From a virus (taxonomy: Duplodnaviria > Caudoviricetes), in the IMG/VR virus record IMGVR_UViG_3300026549_000029, positions 128,001-192,000 of that record: 64,000 nt of DNA, one strand, 5' to 3'. The translations under genes and the position numbers were made by a program. The notes under the pieces are model-generated. The model ran no database searches. It was not told the origin of the DNA and worked only from the letters and a program-made list of their open reading frames with translations. Positions 9,382-59,857 of the stretch are shown one piece after another; positions within the stretch are counted from its first letter, which is position 1; each line of letters opens with the position of its first letter.

Positions 9382-11756
9382 GAGATATTATTATAGGTAA
9401 TATCTTAAATGATTTAAGACATGGAAGTCTTAAACTTGTATATGATAATAAACAATATCTTAATGATTATGCAATGATGTTGTATAATAAAACAGGATTA
9501 ACACAAGATGAACTATATGATTTTAGAGATATTATCTTAATTGCTAATATTACTTATAATGATACCGATAAAGAATTATTACCTATTGAAGATGGTTTTT
9601 ATGATTTACTTTTAGAAAAATATAAAAAATATGATCCAAATTTTCAAGTAGGGGCTGAAGTAATTAATTTTACATCATCTGAACCTATTATTACTAATGA
9701 AAACGGTGAAGTAATTAAACCTATGAGAGAGGCTATTACATTTGATCCTATTCCTAGTGAACAAGATAATCATTTTGTTAATAGTATTATCATAGATGAA
9801 AGAAAATATCTTGATGCTAGAGATTTCTTTGTACCTAATCCTTTAGGTGAAGCTTATATTACAAAGAGATTGCATGATACTTCTCATAATCATCCTGAAT
9901 TAGTAGGCACTCTAGATAAATGCAAGTTTGTATTAGATAGAGATGCTAAAACTAGAGGAGTTTATGAAGATTCTAATGTAAAAATTGTTGAAAGAGATTT
10001 TATTATGGATCATATTAATAAAGGAATTATTAATCCTAATATGATCTTTGATATGGTTTTAGAATTAAAATATGATGGTATTTCTGTTGAAGCTGATTGT
10101 ACAGATGAAATAGTATCTGCAAGATCTAGAGGCGATACTGGTATAGGTAAAGCTTCTGATCTTACACCAATATTAAAAGGATATAAGTTCCCTCATAGAA
10201 CTCCTAATAGTCCTATGATTGGAGTTAAATTTGAAGCAATAATCACACAATATGATTTACCTTTCTTTAATGCAGCTAAAGGATATGAATATAAGAATTG
10301 TAGATCTGCTATAGTTGGATTATTTTCTTCTTCTGATGCTTGGAAGTATAGAGATTTTATAACTCTTGTACCTTTAGCAGTTGAAGAAAATGTATATAAA
10401 ACTATATGTCATTCAGATAGAGTAGAAGAAATAGACTTTTTAAATAAAGAATTTATTTCTAAAGGATGCCCTTTAAGATCCGTAATGATAAGAGGAAATT
10501 ATCTAGAAAATCTTGTTTGGATTAATATGTTTACACAGAATGCTGAATCTTCTAGAGCTTGGGTACCATTTATGTACGATGGTATTGTAGTATCTTATAG
10601 AGATGAAGCTATTAGACAGACTTTAGGAAGAGAAAATTTTATTAATAAATATTCTATAGCAGTAAAGTTTAATCCTCTCAGAAAAGAAACTATATTTAGA
10701 GGATATACCTATACTGTGGGTCAAGATGGTTCTATTACTCCAATGATTCATTATGATCCTGTAGAATTTTATGGAACTATCCATCCTAAATCTTCTGGTC
10801 ATTCTTATGCTAGATTTAAAGAATTGAATTTACATATTGGAGACATGTTAGCTATAGAATATGTCAATGATGTTATGCCATATGTATATAAACCTTTTAA
10901 TGATTATAATTTAGATAATGAAAAAGTTATGCCTGCTGAAGTATTTCCTACTAATTGTCCTGTTTGTGGTGGACCTATTGAAATATCTGAATCTGGTAAG
11001 TCTGCTAAATGCGTAAATCCTAATTGTGGTGGTAGACAGTTATCTCGTATGGTAAATATGTTTGCTAAGTTAGGATTAGAAGGTTTTGGAGAAGCTACAG
11101 TACAACAGTTAGGCTATTATCATCTTAAGGATTTATTAGAAGAGATGATAGAACAAGGAGATGGAGCAGCTAAATTTATTCATAAAGGGTTTGGCCCTAT
11201 AGAAGCTATGAATATAGCTAATCAATTAATAGGATTATTGACTAATCCCATTACAGATGCTAAACTTTTGGGAGCTATTGGTTTTACAGGTATATCTACT
11301 AAAACTTGGGAAACTATATTAGCTAAAATTAGTTATTCTAAATTAAAAGAATTATTTACAATGATAGATCCAGGAAAATTCTATTATAAGAAAGGCATAG
11401 AATTTATGTCATCTATCAAAGGTATCGGTCCATCTACTGCAGATACCATAGCAAGAGAGTTCAAATATTTTTATAAAGATATTGATTATATGATTCAGCA
11501 TGGTAATGTTATAGAATATATTCCAGTACAAGGAAAAATTATAAAATTATCTGGTACTAGAGATAAGAATTTAGTTAAGTTCTTAACTGATAATGGATTT
11601 ATTGTAGATTTTAATAGAACTATAACTAAAGATGTAGCTTATGTTGTTGTACCTCATCCTGGTTTTACTAGTTTTAAAACTAAGATGGCTAATGATTATA
11701 ATATTCCTGTAGTACCTATGGAAGATATTATGAATAATATTGAAAGATATAAATAA
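9378..11756 (+). CDS. ligA: NAD-dependent DNA ligase
   Basis: ELKYDG adenylation motif, SRGD, YDGIVV, IAVKF, OB-fold VGQDGSITP, zinc finger CPVCG...CVNPNC, HhH and BRCT-like C-terminus. Confidence 0.92.
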   Translation: MRDIIIGNILNDLRHGSLKLVYDNKQYLNDYAMMLYNKTGLTQDELYDFRDIILIANITYNDTDKELLPIEDGFYDLLLEKYKKYDPNFQVGAEVINFTSSEPIITNENGEVIKPMREAITFDPIPSEQDNHFVNSIIIDERKYLDARDFFVPNPLGEAYITKRLHDTSHNHPELVGTLDKCKFVLDRDAKTRGVYEDSNVKIVERDFIMDHINKGIINPNMIFDMVLELKYDGISVEADCTDEIVSARSRGDTGIGKASDLTPILKGYKFPHRTPNSPMIGVKFEAIITQYDLPFFNAAKGYEYKNCRSAIVGLFSSSDAWKYRDFITLVPLAVEENVYKTICHSDRVEEIDFLNKEFISKGCPLRSVMIRGNYLENLVWINMFTQNAESSRAWVPFMYDGIVVSYRDEAIRQTLGRENFINKYSIAVKFNPLRKETIFRGYTYTVGQDGSITPMIHYDPVEFYGTIHPKSSGHSYARFKELNLHIGDMLAIEYVNDVMPYVYKPFNDYNLDNEKVMPAEVFPTNCPVCGGPIEISESGKSAKCVNPNCGGRQLSRMVNMFAKLGLEGFGEATVQQLGYYHLKDLLEEMIEQGDGAAKFIHKGFGPIEAMNIANQLIGLLTNPITDAKLLGAIGFTGISTKTWETILAKISYSKLKELFTMIDPGKFYYKKGIEFMSSIKGIGPSTADTIAREFKYFYKDIDYMIQHGNVIEYIPVQGKIIKLSGTRDKNLVKFLTDNGFIVDFNRTITKDVAYVVVPHPGFTSFKTKMANDYNIPVVPMEDIMNNIERYK

Positions 11757-11767
11757 AGGAGGTATAT

Positions 11768-12496
11768 ATGCCAGCAGTAGAAGAAACAGTTGAATATTTA
11801 TGTTTAGAAAATAAGTTTTTTGATAAGACTCCTAATGCAAGAATAACTGTCAATTTTGATTATGAAATTGATCAGCTTGCTAAATGCTTAGAGTCAGAAG
11901 GAGTACCTGTTAATAAATATGAAGCAATGCAGCTTCTTGATGTTTATATTAGATCTCTTTGTGGTATTATTAATATGACTCCTCTTACTGATAATATTAA
12001 TGTAATTAAACAGCTTAATGTTATTATTGGTAGTGAAGATTTTCCTGAAGTTACTGGTGATAAGATTGAGAAGATGTCTCAGATGATTACTACTATTAAT
12101 GAGTATTCATTTGTTAAATTTACTAATAATACTCTAAAGAATATTTTATCTCATATTGAGATTGTATTTAAAGAGTGTAATACTTTTATTAGTGAACTTA
12201 AAGCTATTCTGTATAGAATTTATACAAGTTATGGCTCTGATGCTGGTATTGATAATATTTTAGGTATTGTAGAAATTGATACTAGATTCATCAGTTTTAG
12301 ATTTACTTCTAATTATCCTGAGAATGTTATTTATACAGATAACTATGCTTTTAATATTGTATCTAATATGATTTCTTATCCTAGATTTTTCCAGGAGAGA
12401 GTATCTGTTATTGGAGATACATTTAGTCCTGATGATAAAAAGTTTAAAGAGTTTAGAGAGAAATTAGAAAAAACAACAGAATTTAAGAAAGAGTAA
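11768..12496 (+). CDS. Hypothetical protein
   Basis: Strong AAAGGAGG RBS; codon usage like highly expressed genes. Confidence 0.8.
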   Translation: MPAVEETVEYLCLENKFFDKTPNARITVNFDYEIDQLAKCLESEGVPVNKYEAMQLLDVYIRSLCGIINMTPLTDNINVIKQLNVIIGSEDFPEVTGDKIEKMSQMITTINEYSFVKFTNNTLKNILSHIEIVFKECNTFISELKAILYRIYTSYGSDAGIDNILGIVEIDTRFISFRFTSNYPENVIYTDNYAFNIVSNMISYPRFFQERVSVIGDTFSPDDKKFKEFREKLEKTTEFKKE

Positions 12497-31426: not shown

Positions 31427-33751
31427 ATGCCTGATAATGCAAATCAGAGAAAAATAAATAAATCTCTTGATTTACTTAGACAGAGAGTAAATGATTTATA
31501 TAATAATACTTATTATACTAATGATAATTCTGAAGAATTTAAAACTCAGGTTACAGATAAATTAGATGATGCTATTAGAAAATCTACTCAACAGGATGAA
31601 GAGTTTAAGAATATATCTAATACATCTAGATTATTCCGTAAATTATTAAAGAATACATCCTCTTCTAATTCTGCTCAAGCTAAATTAGATAAAGCATTTG
31701 GTCGTGGTGGAGAAGATGATATCTCTTCTCTTTTCCAATCTACTGATATGGTAGCTTCTATGATGGAAGCTTATTCCAAAACTAAATGGATCTCTGAACT
31801 TGATAATGAATTTGATCTTATTTGTAAATATATGACAAAACTTCAAGCTGCATTGGATATCAAAAGAGATGCAGTCCTCTGTTCAGATTCTTATACTAAA
31901 GAATTCTTGGAGATTCATGCTAAAGGAGAAAATCCTCAGTCTGATAAAAATGCCGCTATTCAAAATAATATAGATGAAATGGTTAAAAAATATGACCTTT
32001 CTAACAAAGCAGAAACTTGGTATGAAGATACCTCTAAATATGGAGAAGAATTTGTATACTGTGTTCCCTACTCTGCTGCATTAGAGCAATTATTAAAAAG
32101 AAAACAAAATACTTCTTTTTCTGTAACTGAATCTGTTACTAGAAAAGAATTTAATCAAGAAATAAAGAAACTTCCTGTAACTATTACTATGGAATCAGGA
32201 GATAATAATGAACCTATTATCAAAATTAATTTTGATAAATCAAAAGTATTAAAAGAAGCAATAGAGAATAATCTTTATTTACAAAGAGCTGCAGGAAATG
32301 ATTTATTAAAAGGATTATCTGAATCATTTATAGTTCATGAAACCAATGAAAAATTTGCAGATCATTTAGAGAAAATTAATAAAGATACTACAGTAGTTAA
32401 GTTTGATAAAACTGTTAGAGATGATGAACTTGAATGGGAAGATGATGATAAATCTGCTGCAGATGGATTAGTAAATTCTAAAGGTAAAGAATCTACTAAA
32501 GTTAGAGTAAATGGTGCAGTATTAAGAGCTATTAAACATGATAGAATTATTCCTATTTATATTGAAGATACTATGTTTGGAGCATACTATATTAGATTTA
32601 ATCAATTTGAAGATCTTGATTTGAATGCTACTGGAAATATAAAAGGATATAACTCTATAACTGGTATGTTTAATAATGGACAAATTTCTACACAAGTTAC
32701 TACTAATGAAGATGTAGAAAATCAAAAGAATCTTCTTCTTAGAACTTTAGCAGGAAAGATTTCACAGAAAATTGATGCTGCTTTTATTAATTCTAATACA
32801 GATTTAAAAGATGAGATTTATAAAATCTTGAAATTTAATGATAAATATAATCAGATTTCTCATACTTTAGATATGGATATTGTATTTATTCCAAGTGATG
32901 ATATTCATCATTTAAAGTTTAAAGAAGATCCTGATACACATAGAGGAATCTCCGATCTTTGGGATGCTTTAGTACCTGCTAAGCAATGGATTACACTTAC
33001 ATTAACTTCTGTATTAGGTTGGGCTACTAGAGGTTTTGATAGAAGAGTATACTATGTAAAGCAATCTCTTGATACTAATACAGCACAGAGCTTATTGAAT
33101 GTAATTACTACTATTAAAAAAGGTAATTTTGGAGTAAGACAGATGGAATCTGTAAACAATATCTTAGGTATTGTTGGTAGGTTTAATGATTTTGTTATTC
33201 CTATGGGACCTTCTGGAGATGCTCCTATTCAGTTTGATACTATGCCTGGGCAACAGTTTGATTTTCCTACAGATCTACAATCTAACTTAGAAGAATCAGC
33301 TGTAAACTCAACTGGGGTTCCTTTAGAGATAGTAAATAGTTCAACTGGGATGGACTTTGCTGTTAGATATACTATGACTAATGCAAAGTTATTAAGAAAT
33401 GTATTAAAGAGACAACTTAAAATGGAAGATTTCTTATCTGAAGTCTTTACTAAGATTTATAGATTTGAATATGATGAGAATATTACTCTTGAAGTTACAT
33501 TACCACCACCTGCATTCTTGAGTATGACTCAGGGAACACAGCTTTTGAATTCTGCTACACAATATGCAGATTCTATTACAGAAGTAGAAATGAGCGGTCA
33601 GAGTGATGAAGCTAAAGCTTTATTTAAGAAGAGATTGATTAGAAAATTAATTCCTTCTTATATGAGTGATGAAGAAATAGAGAAGATTAAAGATCAGATT
33701 TCTCTTGATAATAGTATACAGAAATCTAAAGGTGAAGATGAGTTTGAATAA
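31427..33751 (+). CDS. Portal protein
   Basis: TRGFDRRVYYV resembles the T4 gp20-type RAPERRVFY motif; also IQFDTMPGQ and STGVP; size and late promoter fit. Confidence 0.75.
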   Translation: MPDNANQRKINKSLDLLRQRVNDLYNNTYYTNDNSEEFKTQVTDKLDDAIRKSTQQDEEFKNISNTSRLFRKLLKNTSSSNSAQAKLDKAFGRGGEDDISSLFQSTDMVASMMEAYSKTKWISELDNEFDLICKYMTKLQAALDIKRDAVLCSDSYTKEFLEIHAKGENPQSDKNAAIQNNIDEMVKKYDLSNKAETWYEDTSKYGEEFVYCVPYSAALEQLLKRKQNTSFSVTESVTRKEFNQEIKKLPVTITMESGDNNEPIIKINFDKSKVLKEAIENNLYLQRAAGNDLLKGLSESFIVHETNEKFADHLEKINKDTTVVKFDKTVRDDELEWEDDDKSAADGLVNSKGKESTKVRVNGAVLRAIKHDRIIPIYIEDTMFGAYYIRFNQFEDLDLNATGNIKGYNSITGMFNNGQISTQVTTNEDVENQKNLLLRTLAGKISQKIDAAFINSNTDLKDEIYKILKFNDKYNQISHTLDMDIVFIPSDDIHHLKFKEDPDTHRGISDLWDALVPAKQWITLTLTSVLGWATRGFDRRVYYVKQSLDTNTAQSLLNVITTIKKGNFGVRQMESVNNILGIVGRFNDFVIPMGPSGDAPIQFDTMPGQQFDFPTDLQSNLEESAVNSTGVPLEIVNSSTGMDFAVRYTMTNAKLLRNVLKRQLKMEDFLSEVFTKIYRFEYDENITLEVTLPPPAFLSMTQGTQLLNSATQYADSITEVEMSGQSDEAKALFKKRLIRKLIPSYMSDEEIEKIKDQISLDNSIQKSKGEDEFE

Positions 33752-33757
33752 TATAAA

Positions 33758-33779
33758 GGGTAGGAAGCAATTCCTACCC
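33758..33779 (+). terminator. Intrinsic terminator
   Basis: GGGTAGGAA-GCAA-TTCCTACCC plus T-rich tail. Confidence 0.8.
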
Positions 33780-33848
33780 ATATTTTTAAATTTTTAAAAA
33801 GATATTATAATATAAATAGAAAAGATATAAAAATTGGAGGATATTTTT

Positions 33849-34361
33849 ATGTGGAAGCCAAAGAAGAAAAAGAAATATAAAAACAAGAAAATCTATGTCC
33901 ATTATGGATCAGATTTTCTTAATAAAGATATGTCAATTGAAGAATGGGATAGTGGTGATAAACCTAAAGGAATCTGGGCTTCTCCGAAAAATACTAATTG
34001 GGGATGGAAAGATTGGTGTGAATATGAATATTTTGAAGTTCATAAACTTAAGTTATCTTTTGAATTTAAACTTAAAAGAAAAAGTAGAATTCTTAAAATA
34101 AGAAAAATTGAGGATATATGGCCATATTTGAAAGAGATTGAAGATGAAAGTCTTTGGTGGTGGCCAAGTCGATATGAAGATTATAAATATGAACTTGATA
34201 AGAAAAAGATATATAATAAATTTGATGGGATGGAATTATTTATGAGAAATAATTATGGATATTTCCATAACCATTCCCATATTTTTACTACATGGGATGT
34301 TGATTCTATAGTAATATGGAATCTTGATATTATAGAACTTATAAAAAAGAAAGCAGATTAA
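33849..34361 (+). CDS. Hypothetical Trp-rich early protein
   Basis: Early promoter at 33800, GGAGG RBS before ATG 33849; YVHYG...KPKGIWASP...WDVDS. Confidence 0.7.
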   Translation: MWKPKKKKKYKNKKIYVHYGSDFLNKDMSIEEWDSGDKPKGIWASPKNTNWGWKDWCEYEYFEVHKLKLSFEFKLKRKSRILKIRKIEDIWPYLKEIEDESLWWWPSRYEDYKYELDKKKIYNKFDGMELFMRNNYGYFHNHSHIFTTWDVDSIVIWNLDIIELIKKKAD

Positions 34362-34467
34362 CCTGCTTTCTTTTTTATTTTAAAAGTTAAAATTTTAATT
34401 ATATAATATAATAATGAAAATAAATTAAACCCCACTTATGGGTTAAATAAGAGAAAGAAGGAAGAAA

Positions 34468-34846: not shown

Positions 34847-35773
34847 TTAGACATTTCCAAGAGGCATATTCTGGTTATACTTTTCAGCAACAGTACCTGC
34901 AAGACTAGCATTACCAAGAATGTCTTTTACAAGACCAGTATTCTCGACAATACCATCATTTCTAGTCTGACCAGTACCATCAGTCTTATAACCACCCTTC
35001 ATAACAGCCCATTCATAATCATTGAAATCAAGAACAATCTTTCTCGGACTACCATTGGTCTGAGAGATATCATTCTGCAGCATCATAGATGCATACTTAT
35101 TGACCTGGTCACCAATGATCGGGAAGCAGTTGAAGGATACATTGATTTCCTGGAATTCAATTGTACCTCTAGTAGAGTTATACAGCTGAGAGTTAGGAGC
35201 CATAGTAGGCTGAGCATTAGCCAGTAGATAAGCTCTCTCAACTTTTCTCATAGTATTATCAGTTACATAATACAAGAAAGTAAATACTTCATACTGAGGA
35301 CCAGGATCTTTATAAACAGTACCAACAAGACCATGATAAGTCTTAGCCTTGCTATAAGGATCTTTAATACCAGTGAGATAATACTGCAGATAATTAGTAA
35401 TAAGGGAACCAGATCTCTCCCAGAATGTCATTTCAACAGTAATGGAAGTATCCATAGTTACGTTATTAATAATCATAAGCTCATTAGTACCATTAGAAAT
35501 AGTACCAGCATCAGCAGTAATATCAGGAATACCAGAAAGACCTCTAAATTCACCTTCCATGATATGGACAAGTCCATCCTGAAGAGTCTTAACTGCAGCA
35601 TTCTTATTAGCAAGCTGAGTCATAAAATCAGGAACACCAACAACAGTAAGGAAGGAGTAACCTGATTCAAAGACATCAAACTGCTTTAAATTGGAAAAAT
35701 CAGTAACGCCTTTCATCAGAGTGTATTCTGTAACACTTCTGGGCATCTTAATATAATTAAGACCAGCAGCCAT
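34847..35773 (-). CDS. Tail tube protein
   Basis: Directly downstream of the sheath, ~300 aa, high-expression codon usage, AGGAGG RBS. Confidence 0.72.
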   Translation of the reverse strand: MAAGLNYIKMPRSVTEYTLMKGVTDFSNLKQFDVFESGYSFLTVVGVPDFMTQLANKNAAVKTLQDGLVHIMEGEFRGLSGIPDITADAGTISNGTNELMIINNVTMDTSITVEMTFWERSGSLITNYLQYYLTGIKDPYSKAKTYHGLVGTVYKDPGPQYEVFTFLYYVTDNTMRKVERAYLLANAQPTMAPNSQLYNSTRGTIEFQEINVSFNCFPIIGDQVNKYASMMLQNDISQTNGSPRKIVLDFNDYEWAVMKGGYKTDGTGQTRNDGIVENTGLVKDILGNASLAGTVAEKYNQNMPLGNV

Positions 35774-35790
35774 ATTTTACTTCCTCCTTA

Positions 35791-37659
35791 TTAATATGCT
35801 GGATTCGAATCAGGGGACCCTTCAATAGCAAAGACATCAAAGATTTCACCCTGCGGGAAGTCCTTATAATAACAATACAGGGAAGCATTGAAGATCTTCT
35901 GAGCAGTCATAACATCATCACGAGTATAGATCAGCTCAATAGACTTAAAGTACTTCTCATAGTAACTAATAACATTATCATGAATCAGCTTCTTATACTG
36001 GGCAAAATCATTTCCATCCATAAGCATGAATCTGATCTTCGGAGTATACCTTCTAATATCCTTGATACACATCTGAGTGATAATGACATTAGAAGAGAAG
36101 CTAAGAGGACCCCAATGATCCTGAGAAGTATAAGTGGACTGAACACTAACAATACCATCATCAGAGGAATAGTTAGCATAGTTTACTCTCAGGTCATCAA
36201 GTTCAGTCTTCATATCTCTGCTAGGAGTAATACGAGGAATAATATTCAAAGTATTACCAACCATTTCAGTGATAATGAAGTTATTGAATTCTCCAGCAAT
36301 AGGAGCATTCGGGTTATTCATATAATGAGATACAAGAAGAGGGGCAATACCATGAAGCATTGTAACCTTAACCTGCTTCTTAGAGAAGTCATCAATAATA
36401 TCATAAGTAGTCATATAGTCACCAACAAACGGACTATGGACCCAATCACTAGAAGTAATCTTATTGATAACTTCATCAATATTATCAGGTTCAAGGCCAA
36501 GATCTCTAAAGTAGAAGAAATCTTCTCTAAATGCAGCAAGATCAACAATAAGACTCTTAACTTCATCAGGATAGTTTGCATCTACACAGAAATCAATCTT
36601 ATGATAATCAAGATCATAGATCTCATCATAAGAATAGAAGAAGTTAGGATCTTCTGCACTCAGAAATGCTGTGGCAGCAGTAATCCAGGCATCAGTAGCA
36701 CCATTTTCACCAGGGAATGGAGCATCACCAAATGAACCATTGTCTCCACCTTTAAGAGTATATCCATAAGTAGAAGACATATCAATACCATCAGCACCAC
36801 TAAAGTCTACAGTAAATGTAGTAAGAGAATTACCCTTCTTATCCTTACCATTCAGAATATCAAGATTATAGAAAGTATCATAATCAATAGTAGTTACACC
36901 ATCAGTAGTGATAGTATAACCAGCTTCTGTAGCAAGCTTATCAACAAAGTTCTGGAAAGATTCTTTGCAGTAAGCAGCATGAAGCTGACCAATAGTAGAC
37001 TTCTGAAGAGCCATATTCTTTTTAGTAGTATAATTATAAGTAATAGCATCAGGATTAAGAGAGAATCTACCGGAATCTACAGTAGTTACCCCTTCAATGT
37101 CCTGAATAGTATAAAGCATAAAATCAAGAGTCTTAGAGCCATCATAATCAGGTGCAATTCTGACGTTCTTATAAGACATACCTCTACCATTATCACAGAT
37201 TACAAACAGAGGGAACTTGGTAGTAGTTTCAAGAGCCTCAGCTGCACCCATAACCTGATCAAAAGTAGCAGCATTCTCAATTTTCTGCTTAGTAAATTTA
37301 ACTTTTACTGATCTAGGAGTAGCATCCTGACCTTCGCCAGAAGCTTCAGTAACAACAATTTCTGCAAGAATGACAAGGTTAGCAAGAGTAGCATCCTCAG
37401 CAACAAGTCTCTTACCAAGAACTCTACCTCCAGCAGCCAGAATCTTATGAGCTTGGATTAAAGGCTGACCATGCTTAAAGAAATCAGCATTATTTCCATA
37501 CATTTTCTTAAAGTCTGTATAAGTGAAATCGGTGATTTCTTCGGTACCCTTATCTGCTGAAAAGACACAAAGAAACAGAGGAAGCGATTCATTATTACTT
37601 TCTGTAACTGCATCGCTCATCAGCACTTCATGCCAATTTACTTTGGTTCCAGCATACAT
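35791..37659 (-). CDS. Contractile tail sheath protein
   Basis: KHGQP, RLVAEDATLAN, LKGGDNGSFG, DANYPDEVK and LRVNY motifs of jumbo-phage sheath proteins. Confidence 0.82.
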   Translation of the reverse strand: MYAGTKVNWHEVLMSDAVTESNNESLPLFLCVFSADKGTEEITDFTYTDFKKMYGNNADFFKHGQPLIQAHKILAAGGRVLGKRLVAEDATLANLVILAEIVVTEASGEGQDATPRSVKVKFTKQKIENAATFDQVMGAAEALETTTKFPLFVICDNGRGMSYKNVRIAPDYDGSKTLDFMLYTIQDIEGVTTVDSGRFSLNPDAITYNYTTKKNMALQKSTIGQLHAAYCKESFQNFVDKLATEAGYTITTDGVTTIDYDTFYNLDILNGKDKKGNSLTTFTVDFSGADGIDMSSTYGYTLKGGDNGSFGDAPFPGENGATDAWITAATAFLSAEDPNFFYSYDEIYDLDYHKIDFCVDANYPDEVKSLIVDLAAFREDFFYFRDLGLEPDNIDEVINKITSSDWVHSPFVGDYMTTYDIIDDFSKKQVKVTMLHGIAPLLVSHYMNNPNAPIAGEFNNFIITEMVGNTLNIIPRITPSRDMKTELDDLRVNYANYSSDDGIVSVQSTYTSQDHWGPLSFSSNVIITQMCIKDIRRYTPKIRFMLMDGNDFAQYKKLIHDNVISYYEKYFKSIELIYTRDDVMTAQKIFNASLYCYYKDFPQGEIFDVFAIEGSPDSNPAY

Positions 37660-49913: not shown

Positions 49914-52793
49914 TTATCTGTAGTAAAATATAATTCTGAAATTATCAATGGTAAGAGGTTCTTTAGTGTAATAAATTGTATAATCATTATACTCTATAGA
50001 TGCCCATCCACTAAACTGTTCCAAACCAGAAAAGTCTTTAATAGAAATTAAAGGTTCAATAGATTTAGGAGTAGCAAAAACAAAATGTTCATCATTTGCA
50101 GTATAATAATAATTTGTACTTTGATTTAATACCGTAGCTTTATTCTTTTCTTGAGCAATTAATCCAGTTAGATCTGTAGGAATATCATGAGTTACACCAA
50201 AATAAAGTGTAATAGTTTCATTACTTCCTTCAGGAGCTAAAATCTGTCTCATAAGATCAAGAAGTTGAGCATTAGAATTAATAACAGTACCAGCAGGAAC
50301 TCCACCAACATCTACAGTTGTTGTAAATCCTGTTTCATAAGATGTCTTTTTATTAATAAAATCAGCAAGAGAATCATACTCCTCAGGTACTTCACCAATA
50401 AGATCAGTTACAGTTTTTCCATCAGGTAATTCTCCAATTTCATCTTTGACATCTTTAATATAATCTGCAATATTTTCATACTCATCAGGTAATTCACCAA
50501 CAATAGCAGTTACATACTCTGCTAATGAATTATATTCCTCGGGTACTTCACCTACAGAATTTTTAATGTCATCAAGATAATCAATTACAGAATTATACTT
50601 GCTAGGAACTTCACCAATCGTATCTTTGATAAAATCAACTACAGAGTCAGTACCATCAGGTAATTCTCCAATTTTATTGCTAATAGCATCTACATATTCA
50701 GATACAGAGTTATATTCATCAGGAAGATTACCAATAGTATTATTAATAAGGTCAACTACTGAAGTTGTACCATCAGGTAATTCTCCAATAAGATCAGTTA
50801 CAGAACTAACTCCATCAGGAAGATCACCAATCTTATCATTAACATAATCGGTTACAGATTTTCCATCTGGAACTTCACCAATAAGTTCAGTAACAGAATT
50901 TATACCATCTGGAAGATTACCGATAAGATCTGTTACAGATTTTCCATCTGGAACTTCACCAATAAGTTCAGTAACAGAATTTATACCATCTGGAAGATCT
51001 CCAATAAGATCGGTAATAGAATTTACCCCATCAGGTAAATTACCAATAAGATCCGTTACAGATTTTCCATCTGGCAATTCTCCAACTTTATTATCAATAA
51101 GATCAGTTACAGAACTAACTCCATCAGGTAATTCTCCAATAAGATCGGTAATAGAATTTACCCCATCAGGAAGTTCACCAATTTTATCATCAATATAATC
51201 TGCTACAGAATCATACCCATCTGGAAGATCTCCAACAGATTCTTCAATTTTCTTGTCTACATAAGATGCAACAGTTTCTCCATCTGGAAGACCAATAAGT
51301 TCTCTTACAACAGGAGCAACAATTTCAGTTTTATGTTCTTCAATATAGGTTTCTACATAAGTATTTACAAACTTAGTGATATCGATCGGATATACAATAG
51401 AAATATAAGTAGATTCGGTTGTCTCAATAGTAGTTTCATTATCATATGTATGAAGTTTTCTATACTGAGTTTGAACTTCAGGAGCAAATTCAAAGAATTC
51501 TCCATCTATTACATACTGAATTGCAGCACCATAATCAAGTTCACCAGTAGAAGAAATCCAGTCAGATATAATAGTTTCACCACTATAAGATTCAATATAC
51601 TTTATTCTTCTAAGAACACCAATCTTTCCATTATAGCTGGTAATATGATCAGCCACATACATTTCATCTTCAATGAAGAGATTAGGCTTAGCTGCAGTAT
51701 TTTTAGTAGGAACTGCTCTAAGAGTAATTGTCTCTGGAAGAATCAAAGTCTGATTGATATCTCTTATAGAAGAATAAACATCAATTCTAGAGAGTTCAAC
51801 ACTTTTAAATGTTTCTTTATCAGTATATCCAAAGATCTTCATATCAATAGGACCAATTACAGTTTCCTTCAATGTAGGATCTTTACCCATAAAGAAACTA
51901 GTTACTGCTACAGCAGATTTACCCAATGTCTGGGTAAACTCTTCTTCAGTTCCAGGATATCCTCCTTCAACTGCATATTCATATGCAGACTTACCAGGCT
52001 CACCCTGTTTTCCTTCAGGACCCACAGTAAGAGATCCAAGGTAATCATATCCTTTAACTTGTATAGGATCGGTATTGCCAGAGTCATCAATAAAACAACC
52101 ACAGCCACAATTGCAATTAGAATTACCATCCTCTTTTCTAACAAAAAGATATGTATCATCAAGCACAATAGCGACAAGTTTTCCAATAGGAACTTCACAT
52201 CTATCAGTTTCTGCTTCTATAATAGAATGAAATACTTTATAGATTTCTAAAGCTCCAGCTTCTCCAGTATCTCCTTTAGGTCCAATAAGACTAGTAAGCC
52301 ATTCTTCTTCAGTACCATTGAATCCAAGAGCTACAGCACATTCATATGCCGACATACCTTGAGATCCAACTGCAGCATTCCAAGTTATGCCATCTAAGCT
52401 ATATTGGAATACACCAACTTCATTTTCTCTAACTAATGTAATTCTTTGATCTTCATTGGATACAGAGCAAACAATATTTTCTACAACACTAGTAGAAGAT
52501 ATCACATTAATATCAAGAATTTGACTTGGCTGAACATAAATAACTTCTCCAGAATATTCAGAAGAACCATCGATTTGAATGTAAGCAGTGGTGCCAACTG
52601 CTCCAAGAGAAGAATTGAAATTGCATCCAATTTTAGTTACAATACCAATAATTGAAAATCTTTCTCCGTTCTTCTTATAAGTGCAAGAGACAGTATCTTC
52701 ATGTTTAACAGTTACAGTTTTAATTATATCATTATCAAAAGAGAGTGTAAATCTGATCTGTGGGATGATTGTATATGAACTATCTAAAAGCAT
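49914..52793 (-). CDS. Large structural protein with short collagen-like segments and GELPDG repeats
   Basis: SAYECAVALGFNGTEEEWLTSLIGPKGDTG, GPEGKQGEPGKSAYEYA; ~18 G(E/D/N)(L/V)P(D/E) repeats. Confidence 0.75.
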   Translation of the reverse strand: MLLDSSYTIIPQIRFTLSFDNDIIKTVTVKHEDTVSCTYKKNGERFSIIGIVTKIGCNFNSSLGAVGTTAYIQIDGSSEYSGEVIYVQPSQILDINVISSTSVVENIVCSVSNEDQRITLVRENEVGVFQYSLDGITWNAAVGSQGMSAYECAVALGFNGTEEEWLTSLIGPKGDTGEAGALEIYKVFHSIIEAETDRCEVPIGKLVAIVLDDTYLFVRKEDGNSNCNCGCGCFIDDSGNTDPIQVKGYDYLGSLTVGPEGKQGEPGKSAYEYAVEGGYPGTEEEFTQTLGKSAVAVTSFFMGKDPTLKETVIGPIDMKIFGYTDKETFKSVELSRIDVYSSIRDINQTLILPETITLRAVPTKNTAAKPNLFIEDEMYVADHITSYNGKIGVLRRIKYIESYSGETIISDWISSTGELDYGAAIQYVIDGEFFEFAPEVQTQYRKLHTYDNETTIETTESTYISIVYPIDITKFVNTYVETYIEEHKTEIVAPVVRELIGLPDGETVASYVDKKIEESVGDLPDGYDSVADYIDDKIGELPDGVNSITDLIGELPDGVSSVTDLIDNKVGELPDGKSVTDLIGNLPDGVNSITDLIGDLPDGINSVTELIGEVPDGKSVTDLIGNLPDGINSVTELIGEVPDGKSVTDYVNDKIGDLPDGVSSVTDLIGELPDGTTSVVDLINNTIGNLPDEYNSVSEYVDAISNKIGELPDGTDSVVDFIKDTIGEVPSKYNSVIDYLDDIKNSVGEVPEEYNSLAEYVTAIVGELPDEYENIADYIKDVKDEIGELPDGKTVTDLIGEVPEEYDSLADFINKKTSYETGFTTTVDVGGVPAGTVINSNAQLLDLMRQILAPEGSNETITLYFGVTHDIPTDLTGLIAQEKNKATVLNQSTNYYYTANDEHFVFATPKSIEPLISIKDFSGLEQFSGWASIEYNDYTIYYTKEPLTIDNFRIIFYYR
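50360..51300 (-). repeat. Tandem 13-21 aa repeats IG(E/D/N)(L/V)PDG..S(V/I).D
   Basis: About 18-19 units; a ~67-nt identical stretch recurs with 81-nt period near 50851 and 50932. Confidence 0.85.
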
Positions 52794-52844
52794 TTTATAT
52801 ACACCATACCTTTCACTTAGTTTGATTACTATTAAGTTTCAATA

Positions 52845-53105
52845 AAAAATACAGAAGAAACCCAGTAGGGAAGGCTCCTACTGGGTCTTCTGTCAAAAAA
52901 TAACGAAAGGAGGTTTAGTCATGAACAACAAATAACAAGCATACAATAAATCAGAAAGGATAACGACAAGTTATGAAACACAGGAGAAAAGCATGAAACC
53001 CAACACACGCAAAATAACAAAAAGGAGGTATATATGATTGTGGAAATCACATTATTGAAAAATGCATAATTAAAGGAAATGGGCAGTAATTACACATTCT
53101 CATTT
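52845..53105 (-). ncRNA. Candidate anti-Shine-Dalgarno / anti-start-codon small RNA
   Basis: + strand carries five SD..ATG units (ATG at 52921, 52973, 52993, 53034, 53079); minus strand has AACA-TATAAA-TA (53116-53105) upstream and a terminator downstream. Confidence 0.5.
52851..52893 (-). terminator. Intrinsic terminator on the minus strand
   Basis: ACAGAAGA..CCCAGTAGG-loop-CCTACTGGG-TCTTCTGT; U tract only on the minus-strand side (AATAAAAAAT at 52841-52850). Confidence 0.85.
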
Positions 53106-53117
53106 ATTTATATGTTA

Positions 53118-54308
53118 TTACTGTCGATTATTAAGATTTAAAATGCATTTTTTAAGATTATTTAAAAATCCATCATAGAATTTCTTAGATTTCTCATCTA
53201 AAGAATCATACATCAATCCTTTAGGATTTATTCTATCAAGAAGAATGATGTTCTTAATAAAATAATACATAAAACTATGTTCTTCTATATTATCTGGAGA
53301 ATAGTTCATACAATATTTACAAAATGCTAAACATAATTTCATATTAGATTTACTATCTCCAATAATATGTCTATCTAATACTACAGGACAATATTGAATA
53401 TCATTAATATTATTATTATGCTTTAAATATTTAGCATTAAAAGAAAGAAATACTTTTTTAGGTTTTTCTAAATCAAACTTCTTAATTTTTACATGCTTAC
53501 AATACTCAGAAAAATTAGTTAAATTATAAGCCTCATCAATAACACTTTTAATTTTCTCTAATTTCTCAACAGCTTCTTCTTTACCTTCTGCTTTACATCT
53601 AGCAATAGCAGCATCAATTTCCTTTTTTCTTTCTTCATCAAAAGACATTAAAATATTACCAAATTCTTTTGATGTTTCATTCTGAAGTTTCTGAAAATCT
53701 TGATCAAATCCAGCAAGCATAGTATCTAAGTCTATATAAGCATTTTTCTTTTCCCATTCTTTTGCTAATTCTCCAATAAGTAAATTAGCAGCATAATTAA
53801 GTCTGGTTTTATTTCCAAGAAATGCTAATGCTGGTCCATCATCAGAAGATTTTCTAACAATATCAAGTGCTGATTCTTTTAGAAAACTAGGAAGTTCATC
53901 ATAACTAATTTTTTCACCATTAAATTTTTTCTTAATGATATTATTTAAAATATTTATCTCTTCTAAATCAGTAAGTTCAGATTCTACAGTTCTAGGAAGA
54001 ATATTCTTAATTTCATCAAAAGTAAGAGAAACTTCTTCTCCACCAGTGAATCTATTAAAATGTAAATCTGATAATACTTTAGTATTTGTACTAGCAGTAT
54101 CTGCTGTTATATCTCCAGTAATAGGATTATATATACCGGTAGTAGATATAGGAGATTCAGTAGTATTAATATCTAACTCTTTTAAGTCTGCATAACTTGT
54201 ACTTCCATCTTCATTTTCTACTATACCTTTAGCAGATTCTAAAAGATTATTGTAAAGCTCATCTACTTTATTATTGTCTATATTATTCATTTTAAATATC
54301 TTCTCCAC
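53118..54308 (-). CDS. Hypothetical protein (396 aa)
   Basis: Long ORF; likely start MNNID after GGAG. Confidence 0.75.
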   Translation of the reverse strand: MEKIFKMNNIDNNKVDELYNNLLESAKGIVENEDGSTSYADLKELDINTTESPISTTGIYNPITGDITADTASTNTKVLSDLHFNRFTGGEEVSLTFDEIKNILPRTVESELTDLEEINILNNIIKKKFNGEKISYDELPSFLKESALDIVRKSSDDGPALAFLGNKTRLNYAANLLIGELAKEWEKKNAYIDLDTMLAGFDQDFQKLQNETSKEFGNILMSFDEERKKEIDAAIARCKAEGKEEAVEKLEKIKSVIDEAYNLTNFSEYCKHVKIKKFDLEKPKKVFLSFNAKYLKHNNNINDIQYCPVVLDRHIIGDSKSNMKLCLAFCKYCMNYSPDNIEEHSFMYYFIKNIILLDRINPKGLMYDSLDEKSKKFYDGFLNNLKKCILNLNNRQ

Positions 54309-54507
54309 TATTAATTACTTCATTTTCAGGTTTAGCAATAGGCTTATACGATATACAATTACATCTAGGGCATTTTGCCCAAATTTTATCATAATATTTT
54401 CTAAATGGTTCTCTATCCGAATAAATATTTGTTCTATAAATCATAGCACATGATAAGCAAACAAATCTTTCTTCTATATCATGTTGTTTAAGCCTATCTT
54501 CAGTCAT
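54292..54507 (-). CDS. Small zinc-ribbon protein
   Basis: CLSC...CPRC. Confidence 0.65.
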   Translation of the reverse strand: MTEDRLKQHDIEERFVCLSCAMIYRTNIYSDREPFRKYYDKIWAKCPRCNCISYKPIAKPENEVINSGEDI

Positions 54508-54518
54508 TTTCTTTTACT

Positions 54519-55307
54519 CTAATCTCCCAAAGCCTCAATTTCACTTCCTAATTGTTGTAAATTTAATTTAATTAATGTAAGAATGTCTGCTGCTTCTTTA
54601 CCAAATATAAATGATTCATAATACTTTCTAAAAAACATTCCAGTTGTATCAGTAATAATACTAGCAATATAATTGCCAATATCTATATTAGATCCAGAAT
54701 AGACAGTGCTTAAAATAGTATATAGATTAATATCAAAATTACTAATTTGATCAATTACATATTCAAGATTACAATGAATACCAGCTAAGCTAGGATCTTT
54801 AAATAATTTTTTAGAATAAATATAAGTAGTTTCATTAATTTTATCCATTTCTGATAAATTTAATGCCAAATCAATAGATTTTCTTTCTCTAATTAAATAT
54901 AAAGTATAAAAATTAATTAATGAAGATGTAAAATTAGATACAAATGTATCATATAACCAATATGCAGCAGAGAATATATCTGTATCATCATTTTGAATAA
55001 ATGCAAAATCATAATAATTACAAATAATATTTATAATGTTATTATAAACTCTAGTTCTTGTAGATAGAATTTCATCTGTATTAGATGTAAATCCATCGGT
55101 TAATTCTTTAAAAGTAATTTCAAAAGCATTAACTATATTAGGTCTAGGAAGATCATATAACCTAAATCTGTTATTAATGGAATCCTTAACTATATCTAAA
55201 ATATAGTCATCACTAAACCGAGATAGAATCCCAGCAAGTTGATTATCTATATTTACATTAGTTATAGCAGGATTATATTGGAATGGAACCCCATTAAATT
55301 CTGTCAT
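54519..55307 (-). CDS. Hypothetical protein
   Basis: AAGGAG RBS. Confidence 0.75.
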   Translation of the reverse strand: MTEFNGVPFQYNPAITNVNIDNQLAGILSRFSDDYILDIVKDSINNRFRLYDLPRPNIVNAFEITFKELTDGFTSNTDEILSTRTRVYNNIINIICNYYDFAFIQNDDTDIFSAAYWLYDTFVSNFTSSLINFYTLYLIRERKSIDLALNLSEMDKINETTYIYSKKLFKDPSLAGIHCNLEYVIDQISNFDINLYTILSTVYSGSNIDIGNYIASIITDTTGMFFRKYYESFIFGKEAADILTLIKLNLQQLGSEIEALGD

Positions 55308-55461
55308 AATTAATTCTCCTTATTACAAATTAATTTTTATAAAAAAGTACAATAAAATGTAATAATTAAAAATATAAATATATCTATTTATAAATATTTT
55401 TAGATAGATATTATAATAATGAAACTGTGGGTAATATTACTATTTAGGAGGAATAGTGACC

Positions 55462-55506
55462 ATGAAAAAATTCAATAAGAGTAATAAAAGGAGGTTTAAT
55501 TTATGA
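55462..55506 (+). CDS. 14-aa leader ORF MKKFNKSNKRRFNL
   Basis: AGGAGG RBS at 55446-55451; stop overlaps the next start (ATGA). Confidence 0.35.
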   Translation: MKKFNKSNKRRFNL

Positions 55507-56711
55507 TTGGAGAAGAACGATCAAAAAATTTTTGGAGAATAAGAGATAAAAATATAAAAAGAGAAAAAAGAAAAGAAATGCTAAAGAGATTAAAAGATAA
55601 CTTTATTTTGATCTCTTTGACAGCAAGTTCCATAATAGCATTGCTGATAGTTATTGGATTTGGATTTAAAGCAAATCCAAAAACAGCTGTCAATGGTACC
55701 ACTATAAAAAAAGAACCAATTAAAATTGTGATGGTCAACAATAGTAAATATGTCAATGAATCTATTCCTACTAAAACTTTAGGAATAGATTATTCTAAAA
55801 GGGTGCAGTATCAGAGTTTAACATTTAGAAATATTAATGCTAGAAAGAGTCCAGATGTCAATTCAGACATTGTATCTGAAATTCCTCAAAATACATTTGT
55901 AGATGTATTGGAGGATAAGGGGGATTGGATTAAAATATTACATGATGGTTCTCCTGCATATGTAAAGTCAGATTATGTGGGAACTATTATGGAATATAAA
56001 AAATTTAATTCCATTGATAAAAAGACATTTACTAATGTAAATGTTAGAACTGGACCATCTGAAGATTCTGAATCTGCATTTGTATTAGATGCTGGAACAG
56101 ATGTAGATTTTATAAAAGAGGAAAATGGATGGTCTGAAATTCTTTATAATGACCAGACATATTATATTAAGTCTGATTATATAGGAGATGAAGATGATTA
56201 TAAGGAGTATCAAGCTAATCTTGATAAAACTCCTTATAGTAACTATTTGGTTGAGAAATATAAATTCAGTAAGGATTTACAGAAATATACATATGATCTC
56301 TGTAGAGAATTCTATCCTGCTGATCCAGAACATTATTATGCTCTCTTATTGGGAATGATGCAACAAGAGAGTGACTTTGGGAGAGAAAGATCCAACTACA
56401 ACAAAAATGGTAGTAGGGATTTAGGAATCTTACAAGTTAATAGTTGCAATTGGAAAGAGCTTAAAAAGAAAGGATTAATAAGCTCTTATGATATGTCAAC
56501 CTTAACTTGTGATGAATTGCAGTATAATGATTATATAAACATTCGTGCTGCAATGGATGAAATAAATATTTGTGTTAATAACCATGGTATCTCTGAAAAT
56601 GCTTACTGGTCATATAATACTGGTAAGCATAAAAAGAAAGGTACCAATAAAAATTCCCATAAAGTATGGAAATACTATGGGGAATGGTGCAACAGATTAT
56701 ACCAGGAATAA
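55503..56711 (+). CDS. Membrane-anchored cell-wall hydrolase: two SH3b domains and an SLT lytic transglycosylase domain
   Basis: N-terminal hydrophobic helix; INARKSP..W.KI..YVKSDYV and VNVRTGP..WSEI..YIKSDYI; MQQESDFG, DLGILQVNS, YNTG. Confidence 0.85.
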   Translation: MIGEERSKNFWRIRDKNIKREKRKEMLKRLKDNFILISLTASSIIALLIVIGFGFKANPKTAVNGTTIKKEPIKIVMVNNSKYVNESIPTKTLGIDYSKRVQYQSLTFRNINARKSPDVNSDIVSEIPQNTFVDVLEDKGDWIKILHDGSPAYVKSDYVGTIMEYKKFNSIDKKTFTNVNVRTGPSEDSESAFVLDAGTDVDFIKEENGWSEILYNDQTYYIKSDYIGDEDDYKEYQANLDKTPYSNYLVEKYKFSKDLQKYTYDLCREFYPADPEHYYALLLGMMQQESDFGRERSNYNKNGSRDLGILQVNSCNWKELKKKGLISSYDMSTLTCDELQYNDYINIRAAMDEINICVNNHGISENAYWSYNTGKHKKKGTNKNSHKVWKYYGEWCNRLYQE

Positions 56712-58433: not shown

Positions 58434-59857
58434 ATGGCTATAATTACAAATCCATCAATTCCTATACAAGTACATTATGATTATAATACTAAAAATGAAT
58501 CTTTTATGAAAATGCATTATTTTCTTAAAGCTAAAGGTATTAAAAATAATGCATTTTTTCTACTTCTGTATGATGGTGGTCTTATGGGAGTTAATCCATA
58601 TGATCCAAATTTATCTAGAGAAATGAAAATAAGGATTCTTAGAGAATGTATTGTTAATTTTTGGTATTATATTAGAGAAGTAGCACGTATTCCAGTTGAA
58701 GGCGCTCAATCTAAACGATATGAATTACACAGAGCTAATTTAGCTCTAAACTATATGTTTGTGTATAATATTAATAGTATTAATATTTGGCCCAGGCAAT
58801 TTGGGAAGAGCGTTAGTACGATTCAATATTATCTGTGGTGTTTTAATTTTGGTACTCAAAATAGTAGAATCATATTTAGTAACAAAAAGCACGATGATTC
58901 TAAATCTAATCTTAGATTACTTAAAAACTTTAGATCTGCTTTACCAGAATACCTTAGAATGGATCAAGTAATAGGTCCAGATGGGAAACAGATAAGAGTT
59001 CCTAATAGTTCTGAAACATTGCAAAATCCTATAAACCATAATATGATATCAACATTACCTGGTGCTAGAACAGAAGCTTTAGCTGAGGGTGCAGGAAGAG
59101 GTGCTACAGTTCCCTTATTATATTTCGACGAATTCGCATTTTTACCTTATAACGACGTTGTATATGCAGCAGCAGCTCCTGCATTTTCTACAGCATCACA
59201 AAATGCTAAGAAAAATGGTGCACCTCATAACATAACAATTACAACTACTCCTGGAGATTTAACTACTAAAGAAGGTCAATTTGCTTATAATATGGTTTCT
59301 ATAGCAACACAATGGAATGAAGCATACTATGATTACTCATATGATAAATTAGTAGCATTAATGGAATCTAATAAGCAGTCTAGTTTCATGCATATCAGAT
59401 ACACTTATCAAATGCTTGGTAAAGGTGCTAAATACTTTGATGATATGGTAAGAATGTTTGGTACTGATTATGCTAAGCTTAGAAGAGAAATTTTAATAGA
59501 ATGGTCCAAGATATCTGATAATAGTCCCTTTAATAGAGAAGATCTTGAAGTTATTTCTTCTATGGTTAAGCAAGAACCTCGTTATACACTCTTCTTTGGC
59601 AAGGCCGGACAATTCCAAATGAAATTCTGGGATACTGTTCCAATAGGATCTACATATCCATTATTAATTGGAGTTGATGTATCCTCTGGTGTACATAGAG
59701 ATGCTTCTGCTATTACAGTAGTAGATTCTGAAACTACTAAAGTTATTGCTACATTTAGAAATAACTTTATTACTATGCCAGAATTGGCAGATCTTATATA
59801 TCAATTTGTAACTAATTATGCCAAGAACGCTATTATCTGCGTGGAAAACAACGGAGC
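58434..59857 (+). CDS. terL: Terminase large subunit, exon 1
   Basis: Walker A PRQFGKS, Walker B LLYFDE, TTTPG coupling motif, nuclease IGVDVSSG, CVENNG; late promoter at 58395. Confidence 0.9.

Follow-up and report, generated by a model that had tools for sequence, protein, structure and literature searches.

What use could a phage have for a short stretch of DNA that is crowded with ribosome-binding sites and opens no recognisable gene? Such a stretch lies between two minus-strand genes of a 287,868-bp bovine-gut jumbo phage (G+C ~27%), whose DNA is present in many bovine-gut runs and in one sheep-gut run. We analysed 64,000 nucleotides of this genome (positions 128,001 to 192,000 of IMG/VR record IMGVR_UViG_3300026549_000029), hereafter the window, and use its numbering unless genome positions are given. 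An original prediction, made from the sequence alone, held that the stretch encodes a minus-strand RNA that masks the start regions of several messages, and named a ribosome decoy on the + strand as the alternative.

Start sites without genes between two minus-strand genes

On the + strand, the interval had been described as five concatenated translation-initiation regions, and five units of a Shine-Dalgarno (SD) site plus an ATG are indeed there. The ATGs lie at 52921, 52973, 52993, 53034 and 53079 and are preceded by the SD-like sites GAAAGGAGG, GAAAGGA, CAGGAG, AAAGGAGG and AAAGGA, respectively. Four micro-ORFs read from the sequence as announced (MNNK, MKHRRKA, MKPNTRKITKRRYI and MIVEITLLKNA), and the second, third and fourth are linked by ATGA overlaps. 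This is the sole site in the 288-kb genome where at least three SD-ATG sites open ORFs of <30 aa within ≤250 nt of one strand. Genes of the phage carry strong AAAGGAG(G) sites as SD.

Read in the minus sense, the array holds up less well as a series of five equal units. Only units 1 and 4 are perfect anti-SD sequences, whereas units 2 and 3 (Table 1) and unit 5 (UUCCUUU) are weaker, and unit 5 is implausible as the complement of a start region. Sharing among the units is limited to a 12-nt SD core. Tandem Repeats Finder returned 0 rows for the element, and the motif spacings are irregular.

The gene upstream of the interval has no PHROG match and no significant Pfam match; its homologs (29–64% identity) always lie upstream of the RNA element described below. 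The product of the downstream, tail-fibre-like gene is 60–91% identical at its N-terminus in relatives. It contains ~25–30 tandem copies of a GELPDGxxSVTDLI-type repeat of ~13 residues each. A blastn search of 52600–53400 against GenBank phages gave no match.

A late-type promoter motif and a terminator bound the interval

AACA-TATAAA-TA and a terminator with a U run had both been placed on the minus strand. The first is present in the sequence at 53116–53105, and a terminator scan recovered the second at ~52895–52855. In Bacillus phage AR9, the early consensus is ATATTAT-N6-G and the late consensus is AACA-N6-TA/G, with the late transcription start at the last A/G (PMC5312081). Identical early and late consensus motifs occur in our phage. 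ATATTAT-N6-G is 12-fold enriched in its intergenic DNA, and AACA-N6-TA is enriched there 2.8-fold (versus 0.75–0.85 for permuted controls), its usual place being 22–60 nt before a start codon, including that of the terminase-like gene at 58434. The likeness to AR9 (Takahashivirus) extends to two RNA-polymerase beta-like genes in the phage genome. The matching early and late motifs make it very probable that late genes of this phage are transcribed by an AR9-type non-virion polymerase. The motif before the interval has the AR9-type late form AACA-N6-T(A/G), in which transcription begins at the last base; its final A, A53105, is therefore the predicted start.

Other sequence signals of the phage are recorded here in their own right. 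An extended early-type motif, (A/T)ATATTATAATA(A/T)TGA, matches the AR9 early consensus ATATTAT-N6-G (PMC5312081) and has ~36 genome copies, mostly before + strand genes (e.g. window 55412, 18384, 34407). Gaps of 600–1200 nt that lack any ORF of at least 60 codons lie outside the window, at genome positions 33390–34466, 35058–36296, 68546–69146, 99125–99821, 119190–119876 and 284119–284732, and may be introns or other RNA genes. Many viral contigs, several >200 kb long, have unrelated genes that end in the same 10-bp terminator stem as the interval, ACCCAGTAGG/CCTACTGGGT. We tried this stem as a marker of an RNA family and rejected it: it occurs as an ordinary gene-end terminator in 17 viral DNA stretches (including 13 new loci within L009–L023, plus L007 and L008), and it is therefore uninformative on the RNA discussed here.

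An abundant RNA is confined to the interval

Expression was assessed from contigs assembled over 51000–55500 in four rumen metatranscriptome runs (X3, X4, X6 and X18), which represent two samples and two studies. X4, X6 and X18 gave separate contigs that are confined to the interval (Table 1), while contigs of the flanking genes have depths of ~0–35; such depths are one strandless value per contig, a poor expression measure, and are not quantitative. A 17- to 200-fold depth excess in three runs is nevertheless hard to explain by anything other than an abundant discrete RNA. In X3, which shares its sample with X4, a depth-231 contig of an L001-like relative runs from the end of that phage's own upstream gene on toward its version of the interval, a weak hint that the RNA of this relative is also abundant. 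This evidence fits the original prediction of a self-contained RNA from the minus strand that has its own terminator and a late-type promoter: the contigs are far deeper than their neighbours and the ends of the element are conserved (see below).

The contigs reach upstream to 53095, 10 nt from the start predicted at 53105, and have discrete ends at 53083 and 53024. Contigs of the tail-fibre RNA end at 52806–52816, 11–21 nt short of the start predicted at 52827. Among the listed RNA contigs 52817–52888 is uncovered, a gap that in itself proves nothing.

The right ends of the X4 contig (53083) and the X6 contig (53024) are joined directly to the Illumina read-1 adapter; many short inserts must therefore share those ends. 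The adapter occurs in its read-1 form only and at the right end only. In dUTP libraries, a common type, read 1 is antisense to the RNA. If these libraries are assumed to be of that type, the adapter orientation points to a minus-strand RNA with 5' ends at 53083 and 53024. Both ends fall in conserved C/U-rich motifs that are single-stranded, the loop CUG^CCCAUUUCC (53083) and the unit-4 sequence CCUC^CUUU (53024). They may be processing sites.

Could the RNA come from the + strand instead, as a ribosome decoy or as a message for chained micro-peptides? The contigs themselves are strandless, strong SDs stand at good spacing before the ATGs, and three micro-ORFs are chained. Yet the covered interval is not flanked by a promoter or terminator on the + strand, and in libraries of the standard type the orientation of the adapter agrees with a minus-strand RNA. 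The 5' hairpin is stabler in the minus sense in 5/5 close versions (e.g. −10.6 versus −4.6 kcal/mol) because of G-U pairs. The micro-ORFs were rejected as genes, being unconserved in length or sequence among relatives: the first has 4, 10, 10, 12 or 14 codons in five of them. In one relative (L031), CCUCCUU units have no start codon nearby. These observations make a + strand product, the alternative offered with the original prediction, very improbable.

Nor did we find a protein encoded in the minus sense. A minus-strand GTG ORF of 43 codons was rejected as a gene, having neither an SD nor a conserved counterpart, and no conserved sense-strand ORF with an SD exists among the versions of the RNA. 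At the gathering score, Rfam has no match in the window, and ARAGORN finds no tRNA or tmRNA there; by these two tools, the RNA does not belong to bacterial 6S RNA, tmRNA, tRNA or the other curated families. Rfam at E up to 10 returned noise only. The best match, RsaE (RF01820), scored 15.3 bits (E = 4.9), below its gathering score of 79, and thus falls outside that covariance model.

Architecture of the RNA

Table 1. Features of the locus and RNA contigs over it (window coordinates)
Feature	Coordinates	Strand	Remarks
Upstream gene, function unassigned	53118–54308	-	396-aa ORF as listed; true start probably a downstream ATG
Late-type promoter motif AACA-N6-TA	53105–53116	-	form of the AR9 late consensus (PMC5312081)
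Predicted non-coding RNA, ~260 nt	52844–53105	-	late promoter to terminator U run; RNA contigs; no conserved sense ORF with an SD
5' hairpin	53060–53099	-	predicted fold; apical loop CUGCCCAUUUCCUU at 53073–53086, conserved
Second small hairpin, 8-bp stem	53032–53052	-	MFE and centroid fold; CAU of unit 4 in 3' arm
Unit 4, perfect anti-SD	53021–53036	-	CAU 53036–53034, 5-nt spacer, CCUCCUUU 53028–53021
Conserved GCGUGUGU motif	53003–53010	-	3' of unit 4 in the RNA; recurs in relatives
Unit 3, CAU + CUCCUG, weak anti-SD	52981–52995	-	sequence; unpaired probability 0.91
Unit 2, CAU + UCCUUUC, weak anti-SD, long spacer	52954–52975	-	sequence; unpaired probability 0.84
Unit 1, UUCAUG, 7-nt spacer, CCUCCUUUC	52905–52923	-	abuts terminator; best-conserved unit
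Intrinsic terminator, long stem-loop then U6	52844–52895	-	terminator scan and fold
Late-type motif AACT-N6-TA, separate, for tail-fibre-like gene	52827–52838	-	downstream of terminator; kept in 9/9 loci
Tail-fibre-like gene, 959 aa	49914–52793	-	PHROG tail and tail-fibre matches; downstream of RNA element
RNA contig, run X4	52889–53083		depth 1745
RNA contig, run X6	52918–53024		depth 332
RNA contig, run X18	52939–53095		depth 86

In the predicted fold, the two perfect anti-SD units are largely exposed, with unpaired probabilities of 0.79–0.91 for unit 4 and 0.81–0.86 for unit 1. The window RNA holds 2 copies of CCTCCTT (0.05 expected from dinucleotide shuffles), and CAU lies 4–10 nt from an anti-SD motif 3 times (0.21 expected).

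An inverted repeat of 20 nt (53078–53097/53110–53129, 80% complementary) links the end of the upstream gene to the first hairpin, at its 5' arm and loop. Through this repeat, read-through mRNA could adopt a different fold; by eye, the repeat has no counterpart in L024.

Related phages keep the ends and exchange the middle

Protein-anchored searches yielded homologous loci with seven distinct versions of the element besides that of the window: close ones (L001/L024, L025/L035, L026 and L034), more distant ones (L031/L036 and L027) and a minimal form (L029/L030). In all seven, AAC[AT]-N6-TA immediately follows the stop codon of the upstream gene, and a terminator is present. The motif is at this place in 9/9 loci compared, and the second motif, AACT-N6-TA, stands between the terminator and the tail-fibre gene in the same proportion. 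The terminators retain a hairpin and a U run, with stems that differ. At the other end of the RNA, the loop of the 5' hairpin (UGCCCAUUUCCUU) is nearly invariant in the close versions, and the stem changes preserve pairing (window, L024, L025, L026, L034). The last unit before the terminator, CAU-N7-9-CCUCCUUUC, is found in five close homologs; its spacer varies in sequence and keeps a length of 7–9 nt, within the natural SD-AUG distance.

Between its ends, the RNA varies in length and content among relatives and repeatedly holds ACCUCCUU followed by GCGUGUG. A ACCUCCUU unit homologous to unit 4 is present in L025, L034 and L031, and the GCGUGUGU motif recurs 3' of the internal ACCUCCUU in the window, L034, L031, L027 and L024. 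Internal hairpins occur in L025, L026 and L034 and are absent in the window. The comparison of related loci thus reveals the unit turnover between a conserved promoter and terminator that had been foreseen. Throughout this turnover, CCTCCTT occurs 1–2 times in every long variant (0.01–0.05 expected), and the anti-SD motifs have unpaired probabilities of 0.7–0.99 versus a molecule mean of ~0.45. UCCUU is common to all variants, including the minimal form, with 2 copies versus 0.19 expected. The anti-start CAU is absent in the more distant variant L031.

Scanning viral DNA with the loop sequence gave no loci beyond those already found. In three loci of ~30% identity, the slot of the RNA holds 1–3 small, charged, coiled-coil-looking ORFs on the same strand (L003 6675–6825; L004 6470–7280; L005 6905–7660); these loci were rejected as carriers of the RNA.

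Taken together, these data leave us confident that the locus is a genuine RNA gene. Its product is an abundant, interval-confined, non-coding RNA, made from the minus strand between a late-type AACA-N6-TA motif and an intrinsic terminator, both conserved. It has a 5' hairpin with a conserved C/U-rich loop and a U-rich, unstructured body with two perfect and several weaker anti-SD motifs, most of them preceded by CAU at natural SD-AUG spacing.

No specific target within the phage genome

What does the RNA act on? It had been proposed to be a guide-like array against several host or early phage mRNAs, with the identity over 16 nt between 53021–53036 and 11755–11770 as the example. The identity is real. 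As a sign of a specific target it is worth little, being generic: it falls in a common AAAGGAGGTATAT start region that stands before four genes. When the units were compared with shuffles against the phage genome, there was no excess of matches and nothing beyond the generic SD core. At k = 13, the RNA as a whole has 8 k-mer matches elsewhere in the genome, fewer than shuffles do (mean 14.3). Early and late start regions have similar duplex energies with the RNA (p = 0.85), and we rejected early-gene targeting; SD strength does not differ between early and late phage genes either (p = 0.56). Guide-like targeting of particular phage genes is thus not upheld. Predicted pairing with the RNA is stronger for phage start regions than for random 33-mers (−15.3 versus −11.7 kcal/mol). 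The complement of the conserved loop, and ACACGC as the complement of GCGUGUG, occur nowhere else in the phage genome.

The top predicted partner was the start region of the lysin-like gene 55503–56711 (−25.9 kcal/mol), which has a 12-nt identity with unit 1 of the RNA. L001 has no matching change in its spacer, so this gene was dropped as a target. The gene encodes SH3 domains and a lytic transglycosylase domain and stands behind an early-type promoter.

As the RNA has no specific match in the phage, we infer that, if it acts by pairing, it is either broadly anti-SD or directed at host messages. Early and late genes are equal in SD strength and in pairing; a generic anti-SD RNA would therefore also strike the phage's own late messages, and its benefit to the phage would not be obvious.

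The lack of a target would suit an RNA that does not pair with messages at all, such as a sponge for a U- or pyrimidine-binding protein (Hfq, for example) or a stable by-product with incidental anti-SD motifs. The RNA is 47% U and ends in a U run, and the hairpins at both ends would stabilise it. On the other hand, the promoter motif is conserved, and CCUCCUU and the loop sequence are kept while their surroundings turn over, which argues for selection on those motifs. We regard a sponge or by-product as quite improbable.

The neighbouring tail-fibre gene

In every case the element immediately precedes the tail-fibre gene, as would be expected if it acted on that gene in cis. It could be a terminated leader, or its anti-SD could sequester GAAAGG in read-through transcripts: MFE folds of such transcripts pair CCUUUC with GAAAGG and ACC or GCC with GGU across the terminator in 6/6 homologs. 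However, the AACT-N6-TA motif is conserved between the terminator and the tail-fibre gene, and the gene therefore need not rely on read-through. The start region of the tail-fibre gene comes only 94th among 293 as a pairing partner of the RNA, and we rejected it as a special partner. The internal units, the 5' loop and the high abundance would be superfluous for a cis role.

The known precedent for a terminated leader is lambda PR'-6S RNA-tR'. Like the phage RNA, its transcript is short, abundant and terminated, and it lies immediately before late structural genes. The two differ in that the downstream late genes of the lambda-type arrangement are promoterless and depend on antitermination, whereas here the sequence gives the tail-fibre gene a promoter motif of its own. 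We know of no antiterminator for this phage type. All in all, a cis element of either kind is improbable, about as much so as a sponge.

The tail-fibre leader has a peculiarity of its own. Its sequence GUGAAAGGUAUGGUGUAUAUAAAAUG (window 52794–52827) is almost invariant in close relatives and is found at the same place in L024–L036. GAAAGG precedes the AUG by 15 nt in it, which is unusually far, and the leader may therefore form a folded or split ribosome-binding site.

A mimic of the 16S rRNA tail?

The motif CCUCCUUUC equals what we take to be the usual 3' end of Firmicute 16S rRNA, and MazF-mt3-type toxins cut UCCUU in the anti-SD. The (A)CCUCCUUUC and UCCUU motifs might thus serve as a decoy of the 16S rRNA 3' tail that absorbs a protein binding or cutting the anti-SD, e.g. 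a host abortive-infection ribonuclease. Such a decoy would agree with the presence of UCCUU in all variants, down to the minimal form, and with the discrete RNA ends inside C/U-rich motifs. Against it, these ends are not at U^CCUU, the similarity to 16S rRNA stops at 9–10 nt with flanks that differ among homologs, the CAU at SD-AUG spacing is left unexplained, and the idea comes without a candidate protein. We therefore consider a 16S-tail decoy unlikely; if true, it would suggest that a host defence is directed against the anti-SD.

Pseudo-ToxI and phage RNA mimic arrays are non-coding RNAs with repeated motifs that could neutralise a host ribonuclease by type III antitoxin mimicry. A possible likeness lies in the phage origin and the repeated short motifs of our non-coding RNA. 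Unlike type III antitoxin-like RNAs, it has no fixed-period tandem repeats and shares only the 12-nt core among its units.

Relation to known small RNAs

In streptococcal csRNAs, an unpaired stretch with an anti-SD (CCUCCU) and an anti-start codon is flanked by two stem-loops, and these RNAs are thought to block translation initiation (PMC4438229). The phage RNA, with its 5' hairpin, unstructured CAU...CCUCCUUU body and terminator, is like them in design only. The csRNAs are chromosomal, 87–151 nt long and transcribed from CiaR promoters, and they have one seed each, whereas the phage-encoded RNA is ~260 nt long and has an AR9-type late motif, several seeds and a conserved C/U-rich loop. As for the CiaR-type promoter (NTTAAG-N5-TTTAAG), no TTAAG repeat occurs upstream of the RNA, where AACA-N6-TA stands instead. 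Rfam gave no csRNA-like match at E up to 10, the presence of a csRNA model in that database being unchecked. By this likeness, the RNA resembles a csRNA-type anti-SD sRNA in design and would stand outside that family.

RoxS/RsaE and S. aureus RNAIII are Gram-positive sRNAs in which several exposed C-rich motifs pair with the SD regions of many mRNAs. The likeness to these multi-seed RNAs is looser. The phage RNA differs from RoxS/RsaE (RF01820) in having seeds that reproduce the whole 16S anti-SD, with CAU, in place of CCCC/UCCC, and in being viral and late.

The searched text of the AR9 study (PMC5312081) describes no such RNA, and a scan of the first 50 kb of AR9 found no similar CCUCCU cluster. 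A review of phage-derived sRNAs (PMC12197685), as searched, contained nothing comparable.

Discussion

How might the RNA work? We tentatively favour a locus that encodes an abundant late small RNA which masks SD/AUG regions broadly and so lowers translation initiation, and would put this at somewhat short of an even chance. The most economical mechanism would be pairing with SD/AUG regions and exclusion of the 30S subunit. The exposed CAU...CCUCCUUU segments would pair with the SD and start-codon regions of mRNAs and compete with the 16S rRNA tail for 30S binding, and translation initiation would fall late in infection. Such pairing would have a broad specificity, unlike that of a guide; added specificity for host messages may come from the GCGUGUG motif and the conserved 5' loop.

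A bolder form of broad masking is doubtful, though possible: the RNA could be an RNA-only mimic of the mRNA-recognition tail of the ribosome, abundant enough to compete with 30S subunits for SD sites cell-wide, with seeds gained and lost among phages. If so, it would be a protein-free global brake on translation initiation, or a means to re-programme it.

Broad masking of ribosome-binding sites, if true, would make the RNA a counterpart of protein translational repressors such as T4 RegA/RegB, and a compact tool to damp SD-dependent translation in Gram-positive bacteria. What is new is the combination of traits: a multi-seeded and apparently very abundant RNA that a lytic jumbo phage encodes behind an AR9-type late motif. 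To our knowledge, hardly any trans-acting small RNAs have been reported from strictly lytic phages, and none from phages with their own multisubunit RNA polymerases. The present locus is a concrete candidate, apparently very abundant in natural rumen samples and of a simple, testable design, and its RNA is conserved across a family of uncultured rumen jumbo phages.
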